A stretch of DNA of 61,010 bases from the IMG/VR virus record IMGVR_UViG_3300042465_004246, positions 1 through 61,010 of that record. One strand, given 5' to 3'. This document shows positions 18,590 to 32,529 of the stretch, one piece after another (the first letter of the stretch is position 1; every line of letters begins with the position of its first letter). Position numbers and translations under genes: made by a program. The notes beneath the pieces were generated by a model that saw only the letters and a program-made list of their open reading frames with translations, made no database searches and was not told the DNA's origin. This stretch comes from a virus (taxonomy: Duplodnaviria > Caudoviricetes).

Positions 18590-19727
18590 CAGAGCACTTG
18601 AGCTGTATGATAATACAACTCAAAACATTACCGAGATATCTCGAATAATAAAAAAAGAATTTCCATCAAACGATCAAGAACCAGAAGCCCTAAGGATGCA
18701 AATCTCTAGGCTTATTAAAAAGAGAGGTCTTCGTGATGCATGTGAATCTTTAAACATTGATCAATCAACCGTACCATACATGTGGTTGAAGTCTAAGGAG
18801 GCATCACTGTTTATTAGAAACCCTAACTTTAATGTTACTGAGATAAACTTTGATAAGATTATATCTGAGTGTATGGCAGATCATGTTCCAGTTAAAAAAA
18901 TTAAGGCTCCTAAGTCTTATGACTTTGATAGGGTAATATGGACCGATGTTCACGTTGGTATGGACGCAAGCCGTAAGGGTCTTGCCTTGTATCCAGCAGA
19001 ATGGAATCCTGTTGTGTTAAACAATAGAATTGACGAGATGATTGACTTCATACTAGAGAATAAAACTAGCGATATACTGATCTTAGATGAGCTCGGTGAC
19101 TATATGGATGGTTGGGATGGAGAAACGACACGTAAGGGTCACAAACTACCCCAGAACATGACCAACGAAGAGTCATTCGAGGCTGGTCTAAAAGCAAAGG
19201 TTAGACTAATAGACGAACTATCTAAACACTACAAGCACATAACGTGTAACAACATCTGTGAGGACAATCACGCTGGAGCATTTGGGTACATAGTTAACTC
19301 AGCATTTAAACAAATTGTTGACTTTAAACATTCAAACGTTGAAGTTATCAACCACCAGAAGTTCATAAATTTTTATATCATAGGAGACCATGGATTTATC
19401 ATAAGTCATGGAAAAGATTCTAGAAATTTAAAGTTTGGATTTAAACCACAGCTGGACCCAAGGTCTGCTGAGAAAATATCTCAGTACATCAGACACAACA
19501 ATGACTTGAGGTCTTGTAAGTACATTGAGTTCAGCAAGGGAGACTCACACCAGTGTCTGTTTGACATGTGTACCTCTGATGAGTTTGACTACTTTAATTA
19601 TCCAGCATTCTCACCTAGCTCAGAGTGGGTACAGACAAACTTCAAGAAGGGTAGGTCTGGCTTTGTTGTTCAAAATATCAGTAAGTTTTCAGATAGAAAA
19701 AATATTAAGCCCTACTTTTTTGAGTAG
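18573..19727 (+). CDS. Calcineurin-like metallophosphoesterase with N-terminal HTH-like region
   Basis: TDVHVG, LGDYMDG, DNH, SHG, GDSH motifs. Confidence 0.85.
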   Translation: MNTFHNRALELYDNTTQNITEISRIIKKEFPSNDQEPEALRMQISRLIKKRGLRDACESLNIDQSTVPYMWLKSKEASLFIRNPNFNVTEINFDKIISECMADHVPVKKIKAPKSYDFDRVIWTDVHVGMDASRKGLALYPAEWNPVVLNNRIDEMIDFILENKTSDILILDELGDYMDGWDGETTRKGHKLPQNMTNEESFEAGLKAKVRLIDELSKHYKHITCNNICEDNHAGAFGYIVNSAFKQIVDFKHSNVEVINHQKFINFYIIGDHGFIISHGKDSRNLKFGFKPQLDPRSAEKISQYIRHNNDLRSCKYIEFSKGDSHQCLFDMCTSDEFDYFNYPAFSPSSEWVQTNFKKGRSGFVVQNISKFSDRKNIKPYFFE

Positions 19728-22700
19728 GAGTTAATTATCTGATCAGCTGTTTTTCCAGATTGAATTTTTTGGAGCTCTCTATATGAAACCTCATCAACTA
19801 CTGATGAAAGTTTTACATATTCTTTGCCTTGCTTTTCAGTTAGGCCTCCATGTTCTTCAATCCATTCAATCTCGGAAACTGTTGTCTCTAATTTTGATTT
19901 TGATTTAGTTAGATCCATCTTCCATCCAGTAACTTTAGTGCCAGTCTCTTTCCCAACAGCCTTATATTTTTCATATTGTTTTTCTGTTAAGGAGTTCTTC
20001 TTTGATAACTTTATTATATTATTTGTTACGGTATTTACGTCACGTGGAACTATTCCTAATGCAAACAAAGCTTCAAATATAACGGCATTCTTAATATTAT
20101 CTTGATCTTTTGGTAGCAAATATCTTTCTGACTTATTTCCCATGTAGTCTTGAGTATATTTTCCTGTATACGCTGTGTTCATGTTATCAATTAGTTCCTT
20201 GTATGTGTCATACCCAATACCAATTGTACCATATGACTTTTTTTCATCATTAAACAATTGATACTCACGATCTTGTTTGTATTTTTCAATAAAACTTTGC
20301 TTTTCTTTATCATTCATTTTTTCTTTACCTGAAACTTCAAGCATTAGATTTTTCTTAGACACAGCTTCATCTATCATATCCTGATCTACTGACAATTGAC
20401 TAAGCAATAAGTTTGCACCTCCGACAACAGTATTATCAGCTATTGGTATTGGAGAAAGAAAATCTGTCACTATAGATCTTAACGGATATTTTGTTGCGTT
20501 CTTCATCTCCTTAGATATCTCCACACCCAATAATTTTTCTTTTTCCTCATCGTCATCATCTGCAACTGCTCCAATTATTCCCTTTGCAATAGCAAGGTAT
20601 CCAATACGAATTGATAGACCTATTGATTGATATAACGCCATTTCAAGTGGAAGAGATAATAATGACCTAGCAGCTATTATTTTGTCCTGTTTTGATGCAC
20701 CACTATTAATTCCTAGAACCTTAATATCTGATACCATTCTCGATTTTTGATTTAATGAGAATGATGCAAAAGGCAAGAATAATTTTCTCATAATCTTAGT
20801 TGTAGAATTTTGAGAGTTGAATACCTTACCAGCCATTTTAGCGTCAGATACATTTTGCTGTCTGTCTACCATAAGCATAGCATAGTCTGCCGCATCTTGG
20901 TTTACATTATGTGTAGCCCAATCAATATCTGTTCTTTGATTATTATCTGACAGGTACTGCTTATAGTAAGAAATAAATGAAGACTTAGCGATGAATACAT
21001 CTGGCTTAGATAGGCACCACTTCAACCATATTTGCTGTGCGTCTACAATAAAATTTGAAACTACCCTCGCACCAGAATTTGCTTTGTCTAATCTTCTATC
21101 AATGGACTCAATTGTTGATTGTGATTCTTGACCACGGTTGGATATTGCCATCCCTAATGAATCGATCCACGCATTTGAAGCTGGTGTCAATATATCTATT
21201 CTACTAGAGTTTGCAAATGTACTTAGTGCAATTGGAAATGTTTGCTTTACAATTTGATCTATTCCACCTAGTGCCTTTCCTACACCAATACCACCAAGAA
21301 AATTGGTTAATTGATCAAGGTAGTGCATTGTGTCAGATGGTCCAACTCTTTTATTTTTAGCGGCCTGTATATATTCAGCTATTCTTTTTCTAAATATATC
21401 TCTGTCCTCTTTTGTTGGTATTAACTTGTTAAAGTTTTTTGAGTTTATAAAACCATCTATCCTTCTTATTGCAGCTGCTGTATTCACATCAATAAGTGCT
21501 GCCTTATATGCAGATGAGTTATTAACATCAAAATCTAGGCTAACATATCTATTTGCCTTTGATACTTTTGATGCAGATGGTCTGTTTGATTCCATTAACA
21601 CCCCTGTCTTATTCTTATCTAGAAATTCTATATCCCTACCAAATGCACCAATATTTTTAGGTTCAATTATTTCTTCTAGATTTGCTTTGTCTAGTAATTT
21701 ATATCTGTCTGTACTGTATGAAGTATCACTACTAAGCATCGTATTATAAACAGAAAGACTTATGTCTGATAGGTCATTATATGTAGTCCCCCATTGATTT
21801 ATCCACCAACCAACAGCAGATCTATTAATTTTATCTACGTTAGCACTTATAACATCAATATCTCCAGAATCTACGTTAAGCTTGTCGTATATCTTTTGGT
21901 ATAGTTCACCCATTTTTTGCTCCTTAGTGGATCCTTCTAATAGACTTTTAACGCTTTCTTTTAGTACCTCTACTCTTCTTTTAAGCTCTTCTGCTTGTTG
22001 CATTGCAGTTCCTGATACATTTCTACTTAAGAATGCAAGCATCCCTCTTTCATAAACATTTTCAGAATCGTTAAAACTTTTACCATTTGGCTTTGTCTTT
22101 GCATATTGCTTAAAGTATACATCAACAGTAGTATTAAACATTTTTTCTGCTTTGTTTACTCCATTTATTAATGCAGTCCAGCCCATTTTTTTAGCTACCA
22201 TAAGTCCTTTCTTTGCACCTACAAATAGTTTTTCAAATAGTATTGGCATTGATGCAATTTGTTCAGACATGTATTGCCCTACCTTAGGACTAAAATATTT
22301 TCTAAGTGGACTAGCGACAACCTTGTCATCTATTAAGTTTTCTAGCTCAGTTTCACCTTCCTGTTTTTCTATTACCGCCTCAACAGAGCTTGTTATGTTA
22401 TTGTTTATAAAGTTATCCATTGCCTCAGCAATAAATATTGCCTCTTTAATAGACACATTATTTATATCAATGTTAAGCATTCTAGATATAATGTCAATAT
22501 TTTTCTCAGTTAGAGCTACATCTTCACCAGTCATTGGATTAATCTTATATGTAAGAATGTCTTTCATTATTGCAGACATTGTATCTATACGTCTTGACAA
22601 AAATGTTAGTATATCTGCCTCATAATCAGCATCATCTGCTTCTTCTTTTAGTGAGTTTATAATTAATTCTATATCGCTTAACGACATTTTATCATCTATT

Positions 22701-25700
22701 ACTCCAGCATCAACTAATTCACTGTGCACAGCAAGTAGTTCTTCTTTTAATATTCTTTCTTGATTTTCTATTGCATCATTTGTAAATTCTGATACTGAAT
22801 CAATATTCATTGACTCTCTCATGTTTACATCAAGATCTTTTCTATTTACTCTAGACGGCTTAATTGCATTCTTAACAATTTCTGCCATCTCTAGGTATTT
22901 ATCAATATCATCTACCATTGATGGGTCTATCTTGCTAAACTTCTTAGCCATACCAACCACCTCAGCCTGTATATCTCCCTTAAGTAATTTTCTAATTCCT
23001 TTTCTAAATGAAAAAGCTCTAGACAATCTTTCTTGATAGTCTGCCTTTTCAAATACTCTAGCAGCATAGTCTGCAAGTCTATTAACCATAACTTGGTTGT
23101 CAAGGTTTACTACACTCACTCTATTTATTATTGTTGCTGCTTGCTTTGCAGTTAATCTTCCAAGTTTTACTAGACCCTTTATTGCAGTTGATAGCAACTT
23201 TCTTTTTTGGTTAAGGTCACCCTTAGCCTCCCTAGCAGCTCTTGCTTCAAGTCTAATCTGATCTTTTAGTGCAGTCTTTTCTGTTACTGTTACTGTGCTT
23301 GGCTTAGGTGTTCCCATTATCTTAGCTACAGATGGAGCCTTCTTTAGTTTCTGTTTTTTAGATTGTCTAAAGTCTCTTATTTTTTGCTCTCTGTCTATGT
23401 CGCTTGCATCTTCATACCACTTTGATATTTGTATGTAGTCTATTACATTCTGAATAGCGGTATTCCAAGCTACTCCACGGTCTAATGATTTTTTAAATAT
23501 AGCATCTGCCTCACTGTCCATCCTTGTTTCTTGTGTAGTCTTCTGGAATTTAATGCTTGGCTGAGTAGCGTCAAACGTAGTGTTGGTACCATCTGCAAGT
23601 TTTACTTGGTTTGATTTTAATGTATAATAAACATTTTGTGGATCACCTTCTTCATCATCAAACCAATTATCGTTTATATTATTAAATACAACTCCATCAT
23701 TATTTTTATCATCTAAATTTGATGCTATTTCTCTTGTAGATGAACCATATTTATTTTTTAAGTTATCCCATTTTCTTCCTTTTGCATCAATTATTAATGG
23801 ATTCTTTATATTTAAAAAAGTTTCTAAAACAATTTCTCCAGATGCGTAACCATCTGCGTTCATATAATCATCAGTAAAATATGAACCACCCATAAAAATT
23901 TCAAAATCTTCAGTTGTCCCATGGTAAACAGGCATAGGTTCTCCGTTAGAATCAACGATTTTACTAGCGTTCTGTGGATCGTTCTCCCAGTCACCAAACC
24001 ATTTCTTAAATGCAGGTGTTCTTACCTGCTCCCATTGTACATCATTGAGATTAGACGGCTTACCGTTTGGAGCGGTCTTCTGGAACTTAATATTACTACC
24101 AGACTTATCTAACAATGGCTCATCAGATTTAACTACTTTATTTGTAGCCTCATCATATTTACCATATACAGTAAATCTATCTGAATTTGGAGATGCTTCT
24201 ATTGCATTTTTTGCGTAAACCAAACCACCAACTTGAATAACTTCATCTGCCGAAATAACTGGTGCACCATTTGCTCTATTCCAAAAGAAGCTATGTCTAA
24301 ATGGATTCATACCTACCTGTACCCAGCTTGGATCGTTCATAATTTCTTCAATCATAGCCTGAGCATTTAATCCCTGCTCTTCAGCTGTCTCTCCTGGTAT
24401 GTCTACCATCTCACCTTCCATTCTAGCAAATGTGCCTTTTGAATTAAATCCAGCTGCAATATTTAATGCTACTTTAGGGTCTGTTGTAAACTCAACATTC
24501 TTTAACCTTGCAGCATTTCTATAAGAAATTACATTTCCATTCTTTACTCTTCCATCATGTACAGTTACAATCCATGCATTATGATGCAAGTAAGATGGTA
24601 TGTCAAGTCTAAGTCCAACTCTTTTTATTTTTTTACCAAGTTCATCTACAACTGGAGCCATTAATTTGCTTGCCTTTTTGCCTAGTGCTGTAATCATGTG
24701 CGATAATGTTGATGGTGCAAATAAGGTACCAATTGATCCAATTGGAGAATATTTTTTTACTGCATCCACATATTCCCCTTGATTAATTTTACCCTTAGCT
24801 AAATCAATTGCAACAGATCTAAGGTTATCGCTATTTTTTGCGATTGGACTGTTCATCATACTTTTAACAGGAGTAGCAACCCAATTTTGTGTTAACTGTT
24901 TTTTAATCTTAGAAGGAGATCCCTCTTCGACTGCAAAGCTAGGCAACAGACCAATCTTTTGATCTGCAAACTTCATCTCATCGTACACCTCTCCAACCAT
25001 CTGATTGGCCTGATCTATCTTGCCTTCTTTACGAAGCTGTCTAGCTTTCTCTCTCTTCTTAAATGCAGCGTCATTAACACCACTAAAATTAACCCAGCTA
25101 TTTTGACCTCTTGTTTCAGATGTCATAGCTTTTTTAGCTTCTGGTGAATACATCTCAGAGTGAACTCTCCATGCATTTTCTTCTCCTATTGGTCCAAAAC
25201 TATTACCTAGTTTAGCGTGACCAAAGAAGTCATGTACAAATCTAAAGACATCATTTACTAGCAATGTCTCTCCATTTGCGTCCTTTCTACCAGAGTCTTT
25301 TAATAATATATTTTCTTCTCTTTGTTTGTCAGTAATTGGCTCTTCACCAAATCCAGACTCTGTTGAGAATATCTTCATTCTATTGTTGTCTCTAAGATCA
25401 TTTATCATGTCCTCAGAAGAAGAGTATGGCTCGTTGTTATTTATCTCTAACTTGTATCCCTTTGCTGTTATAGCGTCATATTGATCTAAGGTCTCCTTTG
25501 CCATTGCCTCATAAGCGGCCTTTACTTCAGGGATATTAGGATCATCTTTCATCTTATCGTAAGCGTCAGATATTCTTTTAGATAGGCCTTCGTCTAGCTT
25601 TGTTATCTTTTCAACAGGTGTGTATTCCATTCCTATTGACTTCATGTACGACTTTGCTATGTCAAGTGCCTGTTTTAATGGCTCGTTAAATAGCTTGTTA

Positions 25701-28700
25701 CCAGCTACTGGTGCTGTAAGTTTATCGGTCTTATTTTTTCGGAATTTTATTTTTGATGATTCTTTAAACTCCGCTACTTTTGGTATAGCTCCTGCACTAG
25801 ATGAAACATTTTTTTGTTCAAATTTAGGCTCTTCTGATTTTCTTGATACCTCTTCACCACCTTTATTATACTTTGTGTATGTCTCAGTAATATCACTTGA
25901 TTTATATAGTTCTGTCGGTTGATAAATACCATTTATTTTTGCTAAAAGAGTCCATCCAAATGACGGATGATTATCTATATCACTTTCTTTTGTTTGAACT
26001 ATTTTAAAAGTATTAGGATCAAACTTAACAATATTCATAATCTCACCACCAGTCATTCCTTGATTTAATGGATCCATTATTCTATTGTAGAACTCTTGTT
26101 TGTTTTTTATTCCAATTGCTTTTTGAAATTCTTTATTTGCAGATATTGCATTGTTTAAAGCCTTTCTTAAGTTAGGAGAATAATTATTCTTTATATCTAA
26201 TAGCTCAATAATTTTTTTAGGATCTGACTTAAATGAATCAAAGTTTTTAATATTTTCTCCATATTTTTCTGCAAATTGATTAAACTCTTTTTGATTTGAT
26301 TTATTAGTTTTTATTGCATCATTAAATACATCTATTAATTTATCTTTAGTAAGTATTTCATTATCTAATACTAAAGAAGATAATTCAGCAAAGGTATGTT
26401 GTTGAAACTGCCAAGAGTTACTTAATGTTCCAGAATGAGGTGCAAATATTTTAGCTCCACTCATTTCAGCATTTCTAACAAAAGTTTCAGCTTGTGCTTT
26501 TGTATTAAATGCTGCAAGGTTTGATACTTCACCAATTTTTTTATTATTTAATGACATCATTAATGGAACATAATTTTTTCCTCCTAACATGTTTATTTCA
26601 AATCCATTACCTAAATCAGTTTTACCTGCGTTTGTAAAATCATACATATTAGTAATAAACTTTTCACCATTAAGTTCTCGTATATCTAAGTCTTCAACAA
26701 ACTCTATAATAAAATCCCTTGAATCTTCAGATACACTTTTTGCTTTTTTAAATTTTACTTTAGGGATATTAAATGTTCCAACTTCACCACCGTCTCCTGG
26801 ATCATTTATCTCAATCTCATCCCCAGTCCTAAGTTTCTTAGACATGGTATTAATAAAGTCAGCAGCGTCTTGTGCAGTTGCTGATGCAGAAAATATAACT
26901 GGCAAACCTAGCTTCTTAGCGATATTATTTATCAATGTTTTGAATTGCTGTAGCTTTGTTGTAGTTAATTCTTGCTCTGCCTCAGATAGTATTCCACCAA
27001 GCTCTGATATGTATTCTTCTGCCTTTTCATCTTCATTGTATTGAGATACAAAATCATCTAATCTTTGTTTAATACCTTTGTCAGATATAATATTTTTAAG
27101 GCCCTTTGCCATCAATAATATTGACCCAGACTTCATTCCGTTTTTTTCAATCAACGCATGAAATGCTTCATGATACACCGTACCAATAGTTGCAGATTCT
27201 AGGTTAATATGAATATCACCGTCTACATATAGACCGCTTGATTCTGTAAGCCCAGTCTTTTCTTCTTTTGTTAATTGTTTCTTTGATGCCTCAATAGCAC
27301 TAGCCATTTCTTGGCCATTGTTGTGCATGTATATCTTAACTCCAGGGATCGCATTTAAAACCATTTTAGCGGCTTTCACAATCAACTTATTTTTAGGCGT
27401 AGTTTGTTTTGATGCAAACTCCCTGACATTTTCTTTTGTCAGTAAGTTGTTTGTTGTCTCAGTTGTAGCTCCAAATACATTGGGCATTCTTCCTTCCTTT
27501 AAGGCTTTAGAGATTTCTCTGTGCTGCTCTGGAGTAAAACTCATAGGGTTCTCACCAGTTGCTCCAGTCTTAATATTTTCAAATGTTGCTAGATCAAATA
27601 ATGATTCCTGACCAGCAAGTCTTGCAAATTCAAGTGCTTGTTCTCTTGATGTTTCAGGAACTACTACACTAAGGTCAATTGATACTTGATTGCTATTAGG
27701 AAACTTATATATTCCAGCCTTAACGACACCAGCATCACCTATCATTTTTTGACGCTCTGCAACAAAGTCGGCAACCATTTCTGGAGTCAATTCTTCTGTT
27801 GTAGTGTTCATGCTATCAACTGGAACAACTAAACCAACACCCTCATACTTAGTACCATCAATATTGAATGTAGCACCGTCTTCAGACTCAGGTGTAAGAG
27901 ATTTAACTCTATCTACCTCAGCTGTTGTATTGGTTGTTATAACAGGCTTATCGATTACTACTTCACCTGTAGGCTCTAATAGAGGGCTTATTAAGTTGTC
28001 ATACTTATTGTATATACTATTATACTTAGCCAATACAGTTTTTGGCATGATAGTTTTATCTATCTTACCATTTACTTTGTATTTTTCTATTTTAGGTATG
28101 GCCTTAAGAAGTTCAGCCTGTTCTTGTTCTCTGTAGGCTGCTACTTGCTCTTCTTGCTGTATTTTGCTTGCGACAGTGCTATCGCTACGATCTGCTTCAT
28201 TGACCGTGGTTTCCCGTTGTCCCCCTTCGCTGACCCCGACTTCTGGTTGTCCTTCACCAGTTCCCTGATATTCGCTGATACCGCCTTCTGCTGTACCTTC
28301 TTGTTGCTTGATGTTGTCTTCTTTAGTGGCATTTTCTGATGTTGTTTTTAGTGCTTCGTTTATTTCTTTTATTCTATTTGTTTCTTTTACTACTAGATTA
28401 GGTTCTTTATCTTTTATTTCGTTTTGTATTATTTCTCTTTCTTGTAGTAAAGAAAAAGCTTCTCTTTGAGACTGTGTAGTTAATGAAGCTGGTATTTTTG
28501 TTAAGACAGAATATGATTTATTCAATTCGTCTATCTTCTTGTTCATTTCTTCAGACGAAATTTTTCCATTCTTTTCATCCTCCTTTATACTAGCTATCCA
28601 TCCATTTCTTGATTCAGTATTTAAAACAAAATTTTTATATATATCAAACTTATTGTTTGATGATATATCTACAATATTATCTTTTACTGAAGCACCAGCA

Positions 28701-31114
28701 GATGTCATTCCACCAGCCAAGAAACCTAGCTTAAATGCATCAACTCCTTGGCCCATTAATTCAGCCCATCCACCAGCTTTTGATAGGTCTGGTGCGTCTT
28801 TAAAGTACTCCTCGTTGAAGTTATCGTTCTTTAATATTTCGTTAACAGCAAACTTTTGAATACCCTCAAATTCTTGTTGCATAAATTCAACATTTCCCTC
28901 AGAAACACCAGCACCTGTAATTTTAATTAGACCTTTAGCTATTGATGCACCTATGTTTTTTTGTATTGCTGAATTTAATTCAATTAAACCAGCATTCTTA
29001 GGTAAGTTCTTAAATGTTTTTGTTACTATATAGTTAGCAAATTTATTGAATAATGGATTTTTTCCAGCACCAACGGCAACATCAAACCCCCACTTTTCCA
29101 TTTGACCTATAACAAGACCATATGGAACTGATATTAATTTCTTTTCGTTTTCGTTTAAATGATCAAAATCTGGGCCTCTCATTTGATCCTCCATTGCATT
29201 GTATGACATGGAGAAGAATGCAGCTGTACTTCCAACCTTTCCCAGTGCACCACCTGTTGCAGCGGTACCAAAACTTTCTGCTACAGCATTTAAGGCTTGA
29301 GGAATCATACCTCTGTTTTCTGATCTTATGTATTCTTTATTTGTTCCAGTTATATTTTCCCAACCTAAATCATATTTTTCTTTAGCAAAATCTTTTACTG
29401 TAGCCTGTGCAGCATTAGCAATTTGAGCATCGGTTAATCCTTTTACTTTTTTTTCACCGTAATTCCCATCTATTAATTTTGAAAACTTTTCATCTCCCAT
29501 TATAAGATTTCCAGCAGCTAAACTATAATCTAATCCAGTTAATGCTAAATTAGACATGCCAGATGCAAAAGACTTTACAAGTGCCCCTACAGTACTTCCC
29601 TTTTCTTCTGGGGTACCCTTTGTTTGAATCAACTCTTCAGCAGAGATAAGTTTTTGAGCTCTGTTAGATAGTTCTTGTGCTCTTTTTTGTTTTATATTAA
29701 TGTCTTTATATAGTTTTGATAAATCATCGTTCTCTTTATCAAATTCTTGTTGGGTCATCTTGCCACTAGCTACTCTTTTTTTAAATAGCTTTGTTTTTTC
29801 TTCGTATGACTTAATGTCTTTATCAATAACATCTACTTCATTTCGTTTGATATCATTTTCAACAGCCATTGCCTCTGTTCTGGCCCATTCTGAAATTACG
29901 TCTACCCTATCGCTGGTCATTTTAATTTTACCATTAGAGTTAATCATTGCGTCAATATAACTTTCAGTATCTTTTATATTTTCAAGACCTTCTTTTTCTC
30001 TTTTTGTAAATAAATTATAACGAAGAAATTCTTTTGCTATGCTTGATGAGTTTGATTTAGATAGGTCAATTGTTATTGAGTTTTCAAGCCCTTCATCATC
30101 ACCATTCATTCCTGGAAAATACGAGTTAATGGTTAGCTCGTTTCCCTCTTGATTAAAACCAAAGTTTGAACCATATAATTCTTTTTTTAAAAATTTATCT
30201 ACATCCCTTTTATTAAAGTCTATCTTGTCTATCTTATTTATTTTTGATAGTTGTTTCATCTGAGACTCACCAATAATATTAGCGGCCATATCAACAGCTT
30301 CTTGTGATTTTATTGGGTCTAATCTCTCTTTTGGTTTTCCATTATTATCTAACCAATATAAATATGTTTCCTCTGTTACGGGATTTTTATAGAAATTCTC
30401 ATTGTCCTTTCCCTCTTGTAGCATGTAAAGCTTTCCTTCAAAAGTTGCAGGCTCTATTTTTTCTTCAGGAAGTATAGAATCCTTAGCTTCTTCTTGCTCA
30501 AATGCTCGTGTTTTTTCTGTAGGTATTGTTTGGTCAATTGGTGTAACAGTGGCACCTTTCCAGCGTTCTTTTGGTAAATCTGGATACGCCTTGTTTACTT
30601 GTTCTTTAGTTGCATATTCTGATTCAGGAATTTCTTTAGCTTGATTTGAATACCAGTCAGCTTGAAAATCGCTTGCCAATACGGCCTGCTTGTCTAGTAT
30701 CTTTTCTCTTGCTCTAACGTCACCCTTTGATAGTGGAATATAATTCTCTCCAATTTTTTTTAGCCAAGAGTCACCTTCTTTTCTGTATAGTGCCCCAGGA
30801 TTACTTGGAAGAATGTATATAGAAGGCTCCAACTGCCTTGTAGTCGTTGTGGATAACCGCTCCGATGAACCAACTTCCAAATTTGATTCCGTACTTTCGA
30901 CTTGGCTTTTTTTTTTAATGATTGGAGTTTCAAAATACTCTAGCTTAAAAGTCTCTGGATCTAGATCAGTCAGCTCATTAGAATCTAGATATGAATATAG
31001 CTCTGAGAATTTATTATCATTCTGAGAGTATTCATTATAAAAAGAATTCTCATCAAGGTCTGTCATTTCTCTTGATACTAGCTCTTGGTATAAGTTTTTA
31101 TATTTAGCGTTCAT
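19712..31114 (-). CDS. Giant internal-virion/ejection polyvalent protein (3800 aa) with HExxH metallopeptidase, HDxxGH module and ART-PolyVal-like ADP-ribosyltransferase domain
   Basis: TVYHEAFH (27158-27172); FRFVHDFFGH...GEENAW; FKKWFGDW...SKIVDSNGEPMPVYHGT...YFT; last gene of the ejection cluster. Confidence 0.85.
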   Translation of the reverse strand: MNAKYKNLYQELVSREMTDLDENSFYNEYSQNDNKFSELYSYLDSNELTDLDPETFKLEYFETPIIKKKSQVESTESNLEVGSSERLSTTTTRQLEPSIYILPSNPGALYRKEGDSWLKKIGENYIPLSKGDVRAREKILDKQAVLASDFQADWYSNQAKEIPESEYATKEQVNKAYPDLPKERWKGATVTPIDQTIPTEKTRAFEQEEAKDSILPEEKIEPATFEGKLYMLQEGKDNENFYKNPVTEETYLYWLDNNGKPKERLDPIKSQEAVDMAANIIGESQMKQLSKINKIDKIDFNKRDVDKFLKKELYGSNFGFNQEGNELTINSYFPGMNGDDEGLENSITIDLSKSNSSSIAKEFLRYNLFTKREKEGLENIKDTESYIDAMINSNGKIKMTSDRVDVISEWARTEAMAVENDIKRNEVDVIDKDIKSYEEKTKLFKKRVASGKMTQQEFDKENDDLSKLYKDINIKQKRAQELSNRAQKLISAEELIQTKGTPEEKGSTVGALVKSFASGMSNLALTGLDYSLAAGNLIMGDEKFSKLIDGNYGEKKVKGLTDAQIANAAQATVKDFAKEKYDLGWENITGTNKEYIRSENRGMIPQALNAVAESFGTAATGGALGKVGSTAAFFSMSYNAMEDQMRGPDFDHLNENEKKLISVPYGLVIGQMEKWGFDVAVGAGKNPLFNKFANYIVTKTFKNLPKNAGLIELNSAIQKNIGASIAKGLIKITGAGVSEGNVEFMQQEFEGIQKFAVNEILKNDNFNEEYFKDAPDLSKAGGWAELMGQGVDAFKLGFLAGGMTSAGASVKDNIVDISSNNKFDIYKNFVLNTESRNGWIASIKEDEKNGKISSEEMNKKIDELNKSYSVLTKIPASLTTQSQREAFSLLQEREIIQNEIKDKEPNLVVKETNRIKEINEALKTTSENATKEDNIKQQEGTAEGGISEYQGTGEGQPEVGVSEGGQRETTVNEADRSDSTVASKIQQEEQVAAYREQEQAELLKAIPKIEKYKVNGKIDKTIMPKTVLAKYNSIYNKYDNLISPLLEPTGEVVIDKPVITTNTTAEVDRVKSLTPESEDGATFNIDGTKYEGVGLVVPVDSMNTTTEELTPEMVADFVAERQKMIGDAGVVKAGIYKFPNSNQVSIDLSVVVPETSREQALEFARLAGQESLFDLATFENIKTGATGENPMSFTPEQHREISKALKEGRMPNVFGATTETTNNLLTKENVREFASKQTTPKNKLIVKAAKMVLNAIPGVKIYMHNNGQEMASAIEASKKQLTKEEKTGLTESSGLYVDGDIHINLESATIGTVYHEAFHALIEKNGMKSGSILLMAKGLKNIISDKGIKQRLDDFVSQYNEDEKAEEYISELGGILSEAEQELTTTKLQQFKTLINNIAKKLGLPVIFSASATAQDAADFINTMSKKLRTGDEIEINDPGDGGEVGTFNIPKVKFKKAKSVSEDSRDFIIEFVEDLDIRELNGEKFITNMYDFTNAGKTDLGNGFEINMLGGKNYVPLMMSLNNKKIGEVSNLAAFNTKAQAETFVRNAEMSGAKIFAPHSGTLSNSWQFQQHTFAELSSLVLDNEILTKDKLIDVFNDAIKTNKSNQKEFNQFAEKYGENIKNFDSFKSDPKKIIELLDIKNNYSPNLRKALNNAISANKEFQKAIGIKNKQEFYNRIMDPLNQGMTGGEIMNIVKFDPNTFKIVQTKESDIDNHPSFGWTLLAKINGIYQPTELYKSSDITETYTKYNKGGEEVSRKSEEPKFEQKNVSSSAGAIPKVAEFKESSKIKFRKNKTDKLTAPVAGNKLFNEPLKQALDIAKSYMKSIGMEYTPVEKITKLDEGLSKRISDAYDKMKDDPNIPEVKAAYEAMAKETLDQYDAITAKGYKLEINNNEPYSSSEDMINDLRDNNRMKIFSTESGFGEEPITDKQREENILLKDSGRKDANGETLLVNDVFRFVHDFFGHAKLGNSFGPIGEENAWRVHSEMYSPEAKKAMTSETRGQNSWVNFSGVNDAAFKKREKARQLRKEGKIDQANQMVGEVYDEMKFADQKIGLLPSFAVEEGSPSKIKKQLTQNWVATPVKSMMNSPIAKNSDNLRSVAIDLAKGKINQGEYVDAVKKYSPIGSIGTLFAPSTLSHMITALGKKASKLMAPVVDELGKKIKRVGLRLDIPSYLHHNAWIVTVHDGRVKNGNVISYRNAARLKNVEFTTDPKVALNIAAGFNSKGTFARMEGEMVDIPGETAEEQGLNAQAMIEEIMNDPSWVQVGMNPFRHSFFWNRANGAPVISADEVIQVGGLVYAKNAIEASPNSDRFTVYGKYDEATNKVVKSDEPLLDKSGSNIKFQKTAPNGKPSNLNDVQWEQVRTPAFKKWFGDWENDPQNASKIVDSNGEPMPVYHGTTEDFEIFMGGSYFTDDYMNADGYASGEIVLETFLNIKNPLIIDAKGRKWDNLKNKYGSSTREIASNLDDKNNDGVVFNNINDNWFDDEEGDPQNVYYTLKSNQVKLADGTNTTFDATQPSIKFQKTTQETRMDSEADAIFKKSLDRGVAWNTAIQNVIDYIQISKWYEDASDIDREQKIRDFRQSKKQKLKKAPSVAKIMGTPKPSTVTVTEKTALKDQIRLEARAAREAKGDLNQKRKLLSTAIKGLVKLGRLTAKQAATIINRVSVVNLDNQVMVNRLADYAARVFEKADYQERLSRAFSFRKGIRKLLKGDIQAEVVGMAKKFSKIDPSMVDDIDKYLEMAEIVKNAIKPSRVNRKDLDVNMRESMNIDSVSEFTNDAIENQERILKEELLAVHSELVDAGVIDDKMSLSDIELIINSLKEEADDADYEADILTFLSRRIDTMSAIMKDILTYKINPMTGEDVALTEKNIDIISRMLNIDINNVSIKEAIFIAEAMDNFINNNITSSVEAVIEKQEGETELENLIDDKVVASPLRKYFSPKVGQYMSEQIASMPILFEKLFVGAKKGLMVAKKMGWTALINGVNKAEKMFNTTVDVYFKQYAKTKPNGKSFNDSENVYERGMLAFLSRNVSGTAMQQAEELKRRVEVLKESVKSLLEGSTKEQKMGELYQKIYDKLNVDSGDIDVISANVDKINRSAVGWWINQWGTTYNDLSDISLSVYNTMLSSDTSYSTDRYKLLDKANLEEIIEPKNIGAFGRDIEFLDKNKTGVLMESNRPSASKVSKANRYVSLDFDVNNSSAYKAALIDVNTAAAIRRIDGFINSKNFNKLIPTKEDRDIFRKRIAEYIQAAKNKRVGPSDTMHYLDQLTNFLGGIGVGKALGGIDQIVKQTFPIALSTFANSSRIDILTPASNAWIDSLGMAISNRGQESQSTIESIDRRLDKANSGARVVSNFIVDAQQIWLKWCLSKPDVFIAKSSFISYYKQYLSDNNQRTDIDWATHNVNQDAADYAMLMVDRQQNVSDAKMAGKVFNSQNSTTKIMRKLFLPFASFSLNQKSRMVSDIKVLGINSGASKQDKIIAARSLLSLPLEMALYQSIGLSIRIGYLAIAKGIIGAVADDDDEEKEKLLGVEISKEMKNATKYPLRSIVTDFLSPIPIADNTVVGGANLLLSQLSVDQDMIDEAVSKKNLMLEVSGKEKMNDKEKQSFIEKYKQDREYQLFNDEKKSYGTIGIGYDTYKELIDNMNTAYTGKYTQDYMGNKSERYLLPKDQDNIKNAVIFEALFALGIVPRDVNTVTNNIIKLSKKNSLTEKQYEKYKAVGKETGTKVTGWKMDLTKSKSKLETTVSEIEWIEEHGGLTEKQGKEYVKLSSVVDEVSYRELQKIQSGKTADQIINSYSKK
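28141..28332 (-). CDS. Nested out-of-frame small basic protein (63 aa; MPLKK...ANIRELV...KQIVAIALSQA)
   Basis: Resembles a small phage protein family I recall as MPLKKG.S...IS.NI.E......KQAVAIALS.A; A-rich leader. Confidence 0.7.
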   Translation of the reverse strand: MPLKKTTSSNKKVQQKAVSANIRELVKDNQKSGSAKGDNGKPRSMKQIVAIALSQAKYSKKSK

Positions 31115-32529
31115 TAATTTAATTTTTTTATTGTTGTACCCTGCTTGTAGTATTGTTCTTGTGCTTTAGTGCTGAATATTTTATACATATCAGCTGAAGT
31201 TTTTAGTCCTGTATATTTTGGTGTTGCTCCTCGATTTCCTGGATCTTCATCATATGCACTCCATCCATTGTTTTCCCATTTAAAAAAATAATCACCACCA
31301 GAAGCATCTTTTAATTTTTGTGCTATAACCTTACCATCTTCACCAGATGACATTATTTTTTTTATTTCAGTACCTTTTTTCTGAGCATTAATTTGAGCAT
31401 CAGTAAGTCCACCTTCACTAGGGCTAGAAGTAGTTGAGGCTTTTGATGGTTCGTCTTGAGTTATCTTCTGGCCTAGTTGGTAATCTATTTGGTTCATAAT
31501 TTCCTGTCTAGCTTTTTCTGTCTGTTCTGGAGTCAACACAGGACGCATTACACCATTTCCATCTCTTGCCATCTGAATCATCATCCAACTATTTTCATCA
31601 ATATACTTTTGAGACTCTTCATCTGTCATTGGATCTTGATCCATATCTCTACGAGCTTCATTTTCTAATTTAAGCATATTGTTTATTAGTGCATTTCTTT
31701 CACTATTTCCACTATAGTAACCAATATCATAACTTGTATTATCATCAAGAACGCTTGCAGTACTAGATGGATTATTCATAATTACTCCAATAAGAGAGGC
31801 TTTTGCTTTTGCAAGCTGAGGGTTTAATCCCTTTCCACTAGTAGTTGTCAGTCCTTCTTCTTTAGTAAAATCACCCCAATTTTTTACATTATTTGCAATA
31901 ATTTTATTAAGGTCTACTTTATTTGACTGTATATTTTCAACATTATTCATAGCAACACCAGTTACAAGGGTGCTAGGATCTACCTGTCCTGTTGCTGGGT
32001 CAAGTACGCCAGTCATTAGATTACCAGTTTGTGGATCTATAAATACTTTTTTATTTTTTAGGTCTCCAAATTCTGCAAGCTTACCTATCTTCCACAACTC
32101 CTCGCCACTTGCTACAACATTTCCGTTCTCATCTGGCTCTTGTCTTTTTAATGCCTCCTGTATCTTTGCGTTAAATGTTTTTGCTGTCGTTCCAACGGCA
32201 GCCCAGTTTGTCATTAGATTATTGTTTCTACTTTTATATTCAGCAGGTGTAATAGATCTATCCTTAAGTTGTCTATTCCATTCGCCAATCATTGACCTAG
32301 CGTCTACAGCAGCAGATTGAACAAATCCGTTAAGGGTCTGGTCAGAATAACTATCTACAGTTGAAACTATTCTCTGATTGTCAACGTTTATTTTGTCTAG
32401 CTCTTCTTTTTGTTTCGCTCTTTCTTCTGAAATTCCAGTTATTGTGTCGACAAGACCACCCGTCAACTTAGCCCAGTCTAGGGTGTTATCAGGTGGAACA
32501 TATCCAAAATAGGGATTATTTCTTCTCAT
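31114..32529 (-). CDS. Putative ejection/internal virion protein (471 aa)
   Basis: Helical protein between the small pilot-like gene and the giant gene. Confidence 0.65.
   Translation of the reverse strand: MRRNNPYFGYVPPDNTLDWAKLTGGLVDTITGISEERAKQKEELDKINVDNQRIVSTVDSYSDQTLNGFVQSAAVDARSMIGEWNRQLKDRSITPAEYKSRNNNLMTNWAAVGTTAKTFNAKIQEALKRQEPDENGNVVASGEELWKIGKLAEFGDLKNKKVFIDPQTGNLMTGVLDPATGQVDPSTLVTGVAMNNVENIQSNKVDLNKIIANNVKNWGDFTKEEGLTTTSGKGLNPQLAKAKASLIGVIMNNPSSTASVLDDNTSYDIGYYSGNSERNALINNMLKLENEARRDMDQDPMTDEESQKYIDENSWMMIQMARDGNGVMRPVLTPEQTEKARQEIMNQIDYQLGQKITQDEPSKASTTSSPSEGGLTDAQINAQKKGTEIKKIMSSGEDGKVIAQKLKDASGGDYFFKWENNGWSAYDEDPGNRGATPKYTGLKTSADMYKIFSTKAQEQYYKQGTTIKKLN

Follow-up and report, generated by a model that had tools for sequence, protein, structure and literature searches.

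We analyzed a 61,010-base stretch of viral DNA (the window), which is the whole of the virus record IMGVR_UViG_3300042465_004246 (Duplodnaviria; Caudoviricetes), a linear record with a CheckV completeness of 100. Our subject is a small open reading frame (ORF) that lies entirely within a giant gene on the same strand (Table 1). An earlier note, made by a model from the bare sequence, had described at this site a 63-aa ORF in a shifted frame, preceded by an A-rich leader, set in DNA that is richer in GC than its flanks and facing an acidic linker in the main frame, and each part of this description holds. The exact translation is found where it was reported, and the small ORF is +1 relative to the giant frame because (31114-28332) mod 3 = 1. 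The small protein, with an isoelectric point (pI) of 10.59, contains 16 Lys and Arg residues and three Asp and Glu residues, and it carries three recognizable motifs, i.e., an MPLKK start, NIREL, and KQIVAIALS. The giant frame reads the same bases as NATKEDNIKQQEGTAEGGISEYQGTGEGQPEV..., with a pI of 4.13, 14 Asp and Glu residues, and five Lys and Arg residues. The GC content of the overlap is 0.495, versus 0.34 in the giant gene as a whole and 0.359 in the entire window, a level reached by only 14 of 6082 sliding segments of 192 nucleotides (nt), while the 25 nt preceding the nested ATG are 60% A.

Table 1. Features of the nested locus and of the giant gene that surrounds it, in window coordinates.
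Feature	Position	Strand	Basis
Nested small gene: ATG start, 63 aa, 6.9 kDa, pI 10.6	28141..28332	-	ORF list, homologues, Pfam/PHROG, pN/pS, AlphaFold2
Giant gene, 3800 aa, at the end of the virion operon, mosaic, polyvalent-type	19712..31114	-	ORF, ART-PolyVal, gene order
Giant-frame reading of the overlap, aa 928-992: acidic hydrophilic linker between modules	28139..28333	-	Translation, pI, codon choice
Leader of the nested ATG (-25..-1): A-rich, unstructured, without Shine-Dalgarno motif	28333..28357	-	Composition, minimum free energy
Small-frame TAA stop lying five codons ahead of the nested ATG; closes the small frame upstream	28348..28350	-	Sequence
ART-PolyVal (ADP-ribosyltransferase) domain, giant aa 2388-2514	23573..23953	-	Pfam PF18760, E 1.6e-15

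As for the small protein, homology searches find it a family. It matches the Pfam domain DUF6496 (PF20106) with an E of 1.2e-4, residues 12-57 aligning with profile positions 4-48 of 58, which at 63 aa makes it a short single-domain protein covering most of the profile. It also matches phrog_2423 (E 1.9e-5, 25.6 bits), from the PHROGs collection that has no curated cut-off, with residues 1-63 on profile positions 1-44 of 52. A word-indexed protein search produced 42 relatives of 37-80 aa at E<=0.01, the best being 95% identical (E 2.6e-27), and MPLKK is the start of all 17 that were inspected. A family profile was built from 33 relatives (alignment A1, which includes the window's own protein), 18 of which match PF20106 at E<=0.01 (best 5.2e-7). 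When this profile was searched among 1.84 billion proteins, 945 cluster representatives were found at E<=1e-3, and the best 150 of the 945 range from 37 to 276 aa, most of them aligning from profile position 1 onward. With the peptide as a query, a search of proteins of 112-2000 aa, which the tool itself marks as weak evidence, gave no longer in-frame fusion. Invariant or nearly invariant columns of the family are M1, P2, L3, K4, K5, N21, I22, E24, L25, R43, Q47, I48, A50, I51, and A52, and the window's protein shows all the family traits: the N-terminal MPLKK, the NIREL helix, the (K/A)QI(V/I)AIA helix, and a length of ~50-65 aa. Scanned against the 829 stop-to-stop segments of at least 30 aa in the window, the profile matches a single one, the small ORF (E 1.3e-32, the next segment having an E of 1.7), which serves as a specificity check only since the profile contains the window's own protein. 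The AlphaFold2 model of the protein is a two-helix hairpin (helices 11-29 and 45-55) with a mean predicted local distance difference test score of 84; a homodimer prediction with two copies and alignment A1 returned a score of 0.02 and a mark of 0.42, an outcome that weighs neither toward nor away from oligomerization. The nearest ESM Atlas clusters are viral "hypothetical proteins," 15-17% of them with PF20106, and a full-text literature search for "DUF6496" found no paper.

By homology, then, the small ORF is one of a large family of stand-alone proteins, 40-90 aa in length, that start with MPLKK, with borderline membership in DUF6496. It is similar in length (about 50-60 aa) to the small proteins of unknown function in DUF6496 and PHROG 2423, but its phage branch differs from DUF6496 in having its own conserved MPLKK N terminus. 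The resemblance to free-standing phage genes to which the earlier note had pointed is genuine, with relatives of stand-alone length down to an E of 2.6e-27. Its statement that standard annotation would miss the gene is only partly true, because some public gene calls list the nested ORF (P0001-P0005, taken as nested copies by sequence match to nested loci and not from their contigs).

The nested arrangement recurs widely. We classified by script 98 related loci: 18 viral loci plus the 80 best of 253 metagenome relatives. In 36 of them, a long same-strand ORF encloses the whole of the small ORF, which in 61 others is free-standing; one locus (L066) is unresolved. Nesting with an intact ATG is seen in 15 of the 18 viral loci. 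In all 36 nested loci, the giant frame is the +2 frame of the small ORF, so that both frames are kept in relatives, a point on which the earlier note had said its proposal could fail. The host ORFs span from 893 aa to more than 3100 aa, most of them running off the locus. Since some viral and metagenome loci are the same contig, identical nucleotide copies were removed, which left 31 distinct nested copies (including the window) and 57 distinct free ones. Nested copies reach down to ~56-65% protein identity (L034-L036, L039, L042, L077, and L079), and the host ORFs of L034, L036, L039, and L077 have no detectable similarity to the giant gene of the window (tblastn, E<=1e-5), two of these four carrying other domains (RyR and GNAT). 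The ATG and the N terminus are kept in all 36 nested loci, as MPLK or MPIK in 34, MPLQ in L034, and an internal MPLGK in L077.

The opposite strand of the same bases is also open: a 71-aa antisense ORF (28124-28339, +) spans the small gene, and most nested loci and many free-standing ones likewise have an antisense frame without stops there. The translation looks like hydrophobic nonsense, probably no more than a side effect of Lys-rich coding.

Next, we asked which of the two frames is under selection, using a codon alignment of the window with loci L002-L016 that comprises 15 distinct sequences (L004, identical to L003, was dropped). Nucleotide diversity is ~0.45-0.50 at 150-330 nt upstream and ~0.31-0.46 downstream, and 0.10-0.21 in the overlap. 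In the upstream flank, diversity at giant-frame codon positions 1, 2, and 3 is 0.42, 0.33, and 0.49, which is the usual order (3 > 1 > 2), while in the overlap the corresponding values are 0.261, 0.159, and 0.144, with a peak at what is the wobble position of the small frame. The pooled Nei-Gojobori ratio of nonsynonymous to synonymous differences (pN/pS), bootstrapped over codon columns and calculated for the overlap after removal of the insert columns of L006 and L016, is 0.33 for the small frame (95% confidence interval [CI] 0.22-0.49), versus 1.13 for the giant frame (95% CI 0.79-1.73) and 1.30 for the third frame (95% CI 0.92-1.98). For the giant frame in the flanks, it is 0.62-0.65 (95% CI about 0.56-0.75). 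The contrast with control frames and flanks, rather than any absolute pN/pS, indicates purifying selection in the small frame, as expected for a dual-coding pair. By the same measure, the giant-frame reading of the overlap evolves like the noncoding third frame, apart from its make-up.

These values bear directly on whether the small ORF might be an untranslated relic of a swallowed gene that owes its conservation to a different constraint on the DNA, for instance a recombination joint or RNA element. The stretch does mark a module boundary: in L007, identity of the giant-frame protein to that of the window rises from 26% over the 150 aa upstream to 93% in the overlap and is 91% downstream. 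However, the variation is concentrated at the small-frame wobble position, and this, together with the small-frame pN/pS of 0.33, argues that the constraint acts on the protein and not on the nucleotides. Start, stop, and length are kept down to ~56-65% identity, even inside the four giant genes that are dissimilar to that of the window, and the start is kept unstructured in 24 of 25 contexts, as detailed below. We therefore regard a relic as very improbable, if slightly less so than the other alternatives.

The start of the small gene resembles a gene start. Starts poor in Shine-Dalgarno motifs are typical of Bacteroidota, in which initiation depends on unstructured A-rich leaders. In the window, only two of 29 large ORFs have a Shine-Dalgarno-like motif, and most have A-rich leaders. 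By A content at -25..-1, the nested ATG ranks among the top 2.6% of all 273 ATGs of the giant gene. Its surroundings (-30..+30) have a predicted minimum free energy of 0.0 kcal/mol, which is in the top 0.4%; the background mean is -8.1, and the 25 ATG-started large ORFs of the window that were taken as gene starts average -3.9. Among 25 distinct nested start contexts, 24 belong to the 5% least structured ATGs of their host ORF (median 0.9%). In L002-L016, the open span of the small frame begins only two to five codons before the ATG, where a stop closes the frame. This start context makes it likely that the small protein is made by internal initiation at the nested ATG.

A programmed ribosomal frameshift would dispense with such initiation: a +1 slip would yield a truncated ~990-aa protein ending in a DUF6496-like segment, and there would be no independent small protein. 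Both frames are on the same strand, and one public protein (P0023, 74 aa, from a 2048-nt contig) does read the giant frame and then the small frame. In L002-L016, however, a stop two to five codons ahead of the nested ATG closes the small frame, and the ATG and the N terminus are conserved in 36 of 36 nested loci, with the same N terminus in free copies. The lengths of the best 150 family members, mostly aligned from profile position 1, and the failure to find a longer in-frame fusion also speak against a slip, and P0023, being a single short contig, may be an assembly error. A frameshift is thus very improbable. P0023 itself corresponds to ~28141-28370 (-) in the window; it starts in the giant frame as ..INEQLKQISYNATKETTKQQQAVTTEGGVSEYQGTSEGQQ and continues in the small frame as KSGKEKGDNGKPRSMKQIVAIALSQAKYKKK, which points either to a variant with a one-base indel or to faulty assembly that joined the two frames.

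We next compared synonymous codon choice in the 31 distinct nested copies and the 57 distinct free ones. T at codon position 3 is found in 1.9% of nested codons versus 27.5% of free ones. Before codons starting with AA, AG, or GA, where this T would create a giant-frame stop, it occurs at 0 of 742 nested sites versus 324 of 1245 free sites. At all other sites, it is still rare in nested copies, i.e., 36/1148 (3.1%) versus 527/1854 (28.4%). T is therefore avoided even where no stop is at stake, which goes beyond keeping the giant frame open, and its avoidance strips T-initial codons (Phe, Leu, Ser, Tyr, Cys, and Trp) from the giant frame. Lysine is encoded by AAG in place of AAA (12 versus two in the window), which turns a would-be Lys of the giant frame into Glu. 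As a result, the +2 frame contains no stops in nested copies versus 1-11 (mean 5.7) in free copies, being open in none of the latter, and its composition is shifted: Asp and Glu account for 19.6% versus 9.3%, Lys and Arg for 7.9% versus 27.1%, and the residues FLIMWYC for 5.8% versus 23.7%. The GC-rich patch is a consequence of this synonymous recoding. In a three-way DNA alignment of a nested copy (L079) with two free ones (L096 and L062), the synonymous changes from T to C, G, or A are directly visible. Codon choice thus indicates that the giant frame is selected across the overlap for openness and hydrophilic make-up only.

The recoding also bears on whether the giant ORF is one protein at all, or rather two large genes on either side of the small gene, joined by an open frame that is due to chance or a sequencing artefact. 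Separate genes do exist. In both L062 and L096, 29-32 nt separate a large gene (1191 or 1292 aa) from the small gene that follows, and another large gene, of 1185 or 1256 aa, begins 2 nt past the small-gene stop; in L039, the 889-aa gene that runs through the small gene terminates 197 nt beyond it. Yet the +2 frame, open in none of the 57 free copies, is open in every locus where a long ORF adjoins, and the near absence of T at position 3 extends to sites where no stop is at stake. In L006 and L016, in-frame inserts of ~57 and ~73 codons, located right after a slightly shortened small ORF, still leave the giant frame open, and the same architecture is found in 31 distinct sequences from separate assemblies. 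A giant gene split in two is accordingly even harder to credit than a frameshift. The least tenable alternative, a chance ORF without coding meaning in a GC-rich patch, is compatible with the unremarkable length of the ORF and can otherwise be dismissed, being already refuted by homology, conservation in nested loci, recoding, and pN/pS.

In the window, the place at which L006 and L016 carry their inserts corresponds to the 3' end of the small ORF (28139-28150, -), where one contig from an RNA library (run X3) has 170 extra letters between 28147 and 28150. This end looks like an insertion hot spot.

Together, the nested ORF in 36 loci, the selection seen in its frame, synonymous recoding by which the giant frame stays open, and a gene-like start context make functional dual coding of 28141-28332 (-) very likely, in agreement with what the earlier note had proposed as true dual coding. 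Several points weigh against this reading or against parts of it. The window's protein narrowly misses the gathering cut-off of DUF6496 (22.8 versus 24 bits). The length of the small ORF is by itself not beyond chance, since other same-strand ORFs in alternative frames of the giant gene are 58, 57, and 52 aa long; what sets it apart from chance is homology together with the comparative signals. The sequences compared for pN/pS are related, so that pairwise counts are not independent, and the measure is biased in overlapping frames. In the family tree presented below, 44 of 82 branches are unresolved, and the supported branches force only two state changes. Parts of the stretch are present in 22 metatranscriptome runs, and contigs from four freshwater RNA libraries cover the overlap and cross the nested start (27600-28900 compared), but such contigs cannot show transcript ends, strand, or level, might stem from DNA carry-over, and have no bearing on a separate transcript. 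A Foldseek search of the AlphaFold2 model against the PDB gave no match at E<=0.001 (best E 7.1), and without a solved look-alike, the fold gives no functional lead, leaving function to context and charge. We also rejected linkage to giant genes as a general rule, since many free copies sit among small unnamed genes, and a specific partnership with the giant protein is for this reason not supported. Finally, the gene appears to be missing from cultured relatives of the phage. A tblastn search of the small protein against 50,697 phage records returned nothing at E<=1e-3, although the low-complexity filter may hide Lys-rich matches, and at the giant-gene locus of the Elemovirus record elemoE (L107), nothing matches the small-gene family better than an E of 3.9.

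An important question is which of the two readings came first. The small gene is probably the older reading and the giant linker a younger one laid over it, because the family of the former is wide and stand-alone, while the acidic reading has no relatives of its own. The overprinting described in the earlier note therefore probably has its direction reversed. In a tree of 85 distinct proteins (63 columns), which is unrooted and does not separate gain from loss of nesting, the nested/free label needs five changes on the best tree, and the well-supported branches force at least two. A direct comparison is offered by L079, whose small protein is of the same short subfamily as those of L062 and L096, the three forming one clade with a Shimodaira-Hasegawa-like approximate likelihood ratio test value of 96. 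The second large gene of L096 is similar to aa 2639-3524 of the giant protein, and in L079 a matching module (aa 2510-3254) lies directly downstream of the small gene, all of it in one ORF, i.e., nested.

Same-strand nested phage genes as such are textbook knowledge, as in lambda, where Rz1 lies inside Rz, and in phiX174, where B lies inside A and E inside D. The present locus is like these in that two proteins are encoded by one stretch of DNA in different same-strand frames, the nested gene having its own start. It is unlike them in two respects: there, the nested gene is usually taken as new, whereas here it belongs to a wide stand-alone family; and here, nested and free states coexist in one family, which provides natural controls. 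What differs here is a widely distributed resident gene read through by giant genes formed around it, recurrently and with measurable recoding. Viral overprinting is the subject of general reviews (for example, PMC8227390).

The giant protein is built of modules. Its ART-PolyVal domain (PF18760) scores 58.5 bits, above the cut-off of 31.2, and its similarity to related loci is mosaic. As a giant multidomain protein with a conflict-type enzymatic domain, encoded with virion genes (upstream of it, same-strand genes have PHROG matches to portal and virion structural proteins), it has the attributes of a polyvalent protein. It resembles the polyvalent proteins of phages and conjugative elements, as described in the main text of Iyer et al. 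2017 (PMC5512222), in being giant and multimodular, in carrying ART-PolyVal, and in having modules that are shuffled between relatives. It differs in that this main text describes no gene nested in a linker, with 0 occurrences of "overlapping," "frameshift," or "linker." A literature search, which covered this main text, found no paper linking polyvalent proteins to nested genes. Modules also change at the overlap itself. The abrupt drop in identity between L007 and the window indicates a recombination breakpoint at the 5' edge of the overlap, and different modules adjoin the small ORF in L035 and L079.

Other similarities of the giant protein were also seen. It matches phrog_3170 (E 7e-20) and, weakly, mycobacteriophage L5 gp82 / phrog_586, with module matches at aa 1811-2012, 2176-2293, and 2388-2514, the last of which is ART-PolyVal. 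In L035, a phrog_3170 module lies directly upstream of the nested gene, and upstream of the overlap L007 resembles L008 (63%). At its start, the giant gene overlaps the 471-aa gene before it (31114..32529) by one base, position 31114, which opens the ATG of the one and closes the stop codon of the other. This suggests tight translational coupling within the virion operon.

Clues to the function of the small protein come from its free-standing copies. Among 20 large neighbors of such copies (19 loci), six are large terminases, three portals, two connectors, one a ParB/methyltransferase, and eight are unnamed, so that terminase, portal, or connector accounts for 11 of the 12 neighbors named by PHROG. 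In L053, L068, and L048, the large terminase lies within ~250 nt downstream of the small-gene stop, and in L018 an HNH endonuclease and a major head protein are nearby. The terminase, portal, and connector neighbors place the family in the head and packaging module. Neighbors and charge are compatible with a head or packaging role, for example as a basic nucleic acid-binding or internal head protein, which we put forward tentatively, at somewhat less than an even chance. Such a role would be in line with the DNA-condensing or packaging partner suggested in the earlier note, a suggestion that the neighbors back by association only.

We propose the following scenario. An old, independent small gene would encode a 63-aa, very basic helical-hairpin protein of the MPLKK / DUF6496-like type, and ribosomes would start at its own ATG behind an A-rich, structure-free leader, as at this genome's other genes. 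The giant virion gene reads through the small gene one base out of register, producing an acidic, hydrophilic, and probably disordered linker between modules. Selection acts on the amino acids of the small frame, while openness and hydrophilicity of the giant frame are secured through the synonymous codons of the small gene. Nested and free arrangements have been interchanged at least twice, by fusion or fission of the large flanking genes. The small protein might serve in head formation or packaging, for example as a nucleic acid-binding or internal virion protein.

The implications are several. Overlapping genes are usually hard to prove, and the older of the two readings hard to tell; here, 57 distinct free copies coexist with 31 distinct nested ones, so that the cost and mechanics of dual coding can be read directly. 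Dual coding in this family would amount to wholesale synonymous recoding of an old gene, with the second frame passing as a hydrophilic linker. It would illustrate a route to gene overlap in which flanking genes fuse across a resident gene, rather than one in which a new ORF is born. It would also mean that the giant "polyvalent" virion proteins conceal a further gene in an abundant, uncultured clade of freshwater phages, whose cultured relatives infect Flavobacteriia, and annotation pipelines that forbid nested same-strand genes will drop a conserved protein.

A bolder reading, which we consider rather doubtful, is that these ~190 conserved bases play a triple role, as a gene of the head module, as a flexible acidic joint of a giant injected protein, and as a shared "recombination joint" at which diverged phages would exchange N- and C-terminal sets of modules between their polyvalent proteins. 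The identity break in L007, the different modules found at the joint in L035 and L079, and the repeated swallowing or release of the gene are the evidence for it. If this were true, the family would be a natural before-and-after series for measuring the cost of dual coding.

As for the phage itself, the 1341-aa virion protein of the window matches 87 phage records, from phages of Flavobacterium (68), Cellulophaga (15), Tenacibaculum (two), and Maribacter (one), with one labeled only Caudoviricetes. Through this match, the window resembles Elemovirus (Flavobacterium phage vB_FspP_elemo) and the podoviruses like Cellulophaga phage phi38:1. The resemblance to Elemovirus extends to an 11,085-nt coding sequence, annotated as "structural protein" in the elemoE record, with the same gene order as in the window; the absence of a small-gene family match from that locus sets the two apart. 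At the nucleotide level, a blastn search with 2.5 kb around the site found no match among GenBank phages, and a tblastn search of the phage collection with the small protein at E<=10 gave a single irrelevant match (E 3). In genome collections, four of seven matches of the small protein are on contigs labeled Bacteroidota. A copy 84% identical to that of the window lies at 3440-3622 of L100, a 3735-nt contig in a metagenome-assembled genome (MAG) labeled Candidatus Fokinia solitaria, an alphaproteobacterial endosymbiont, and further matches are on MAG contigs labeled Verrucomicrobiota and Gammaproteobacteria. L100 and these further matches are probably phage contigs that were swept into the bins.

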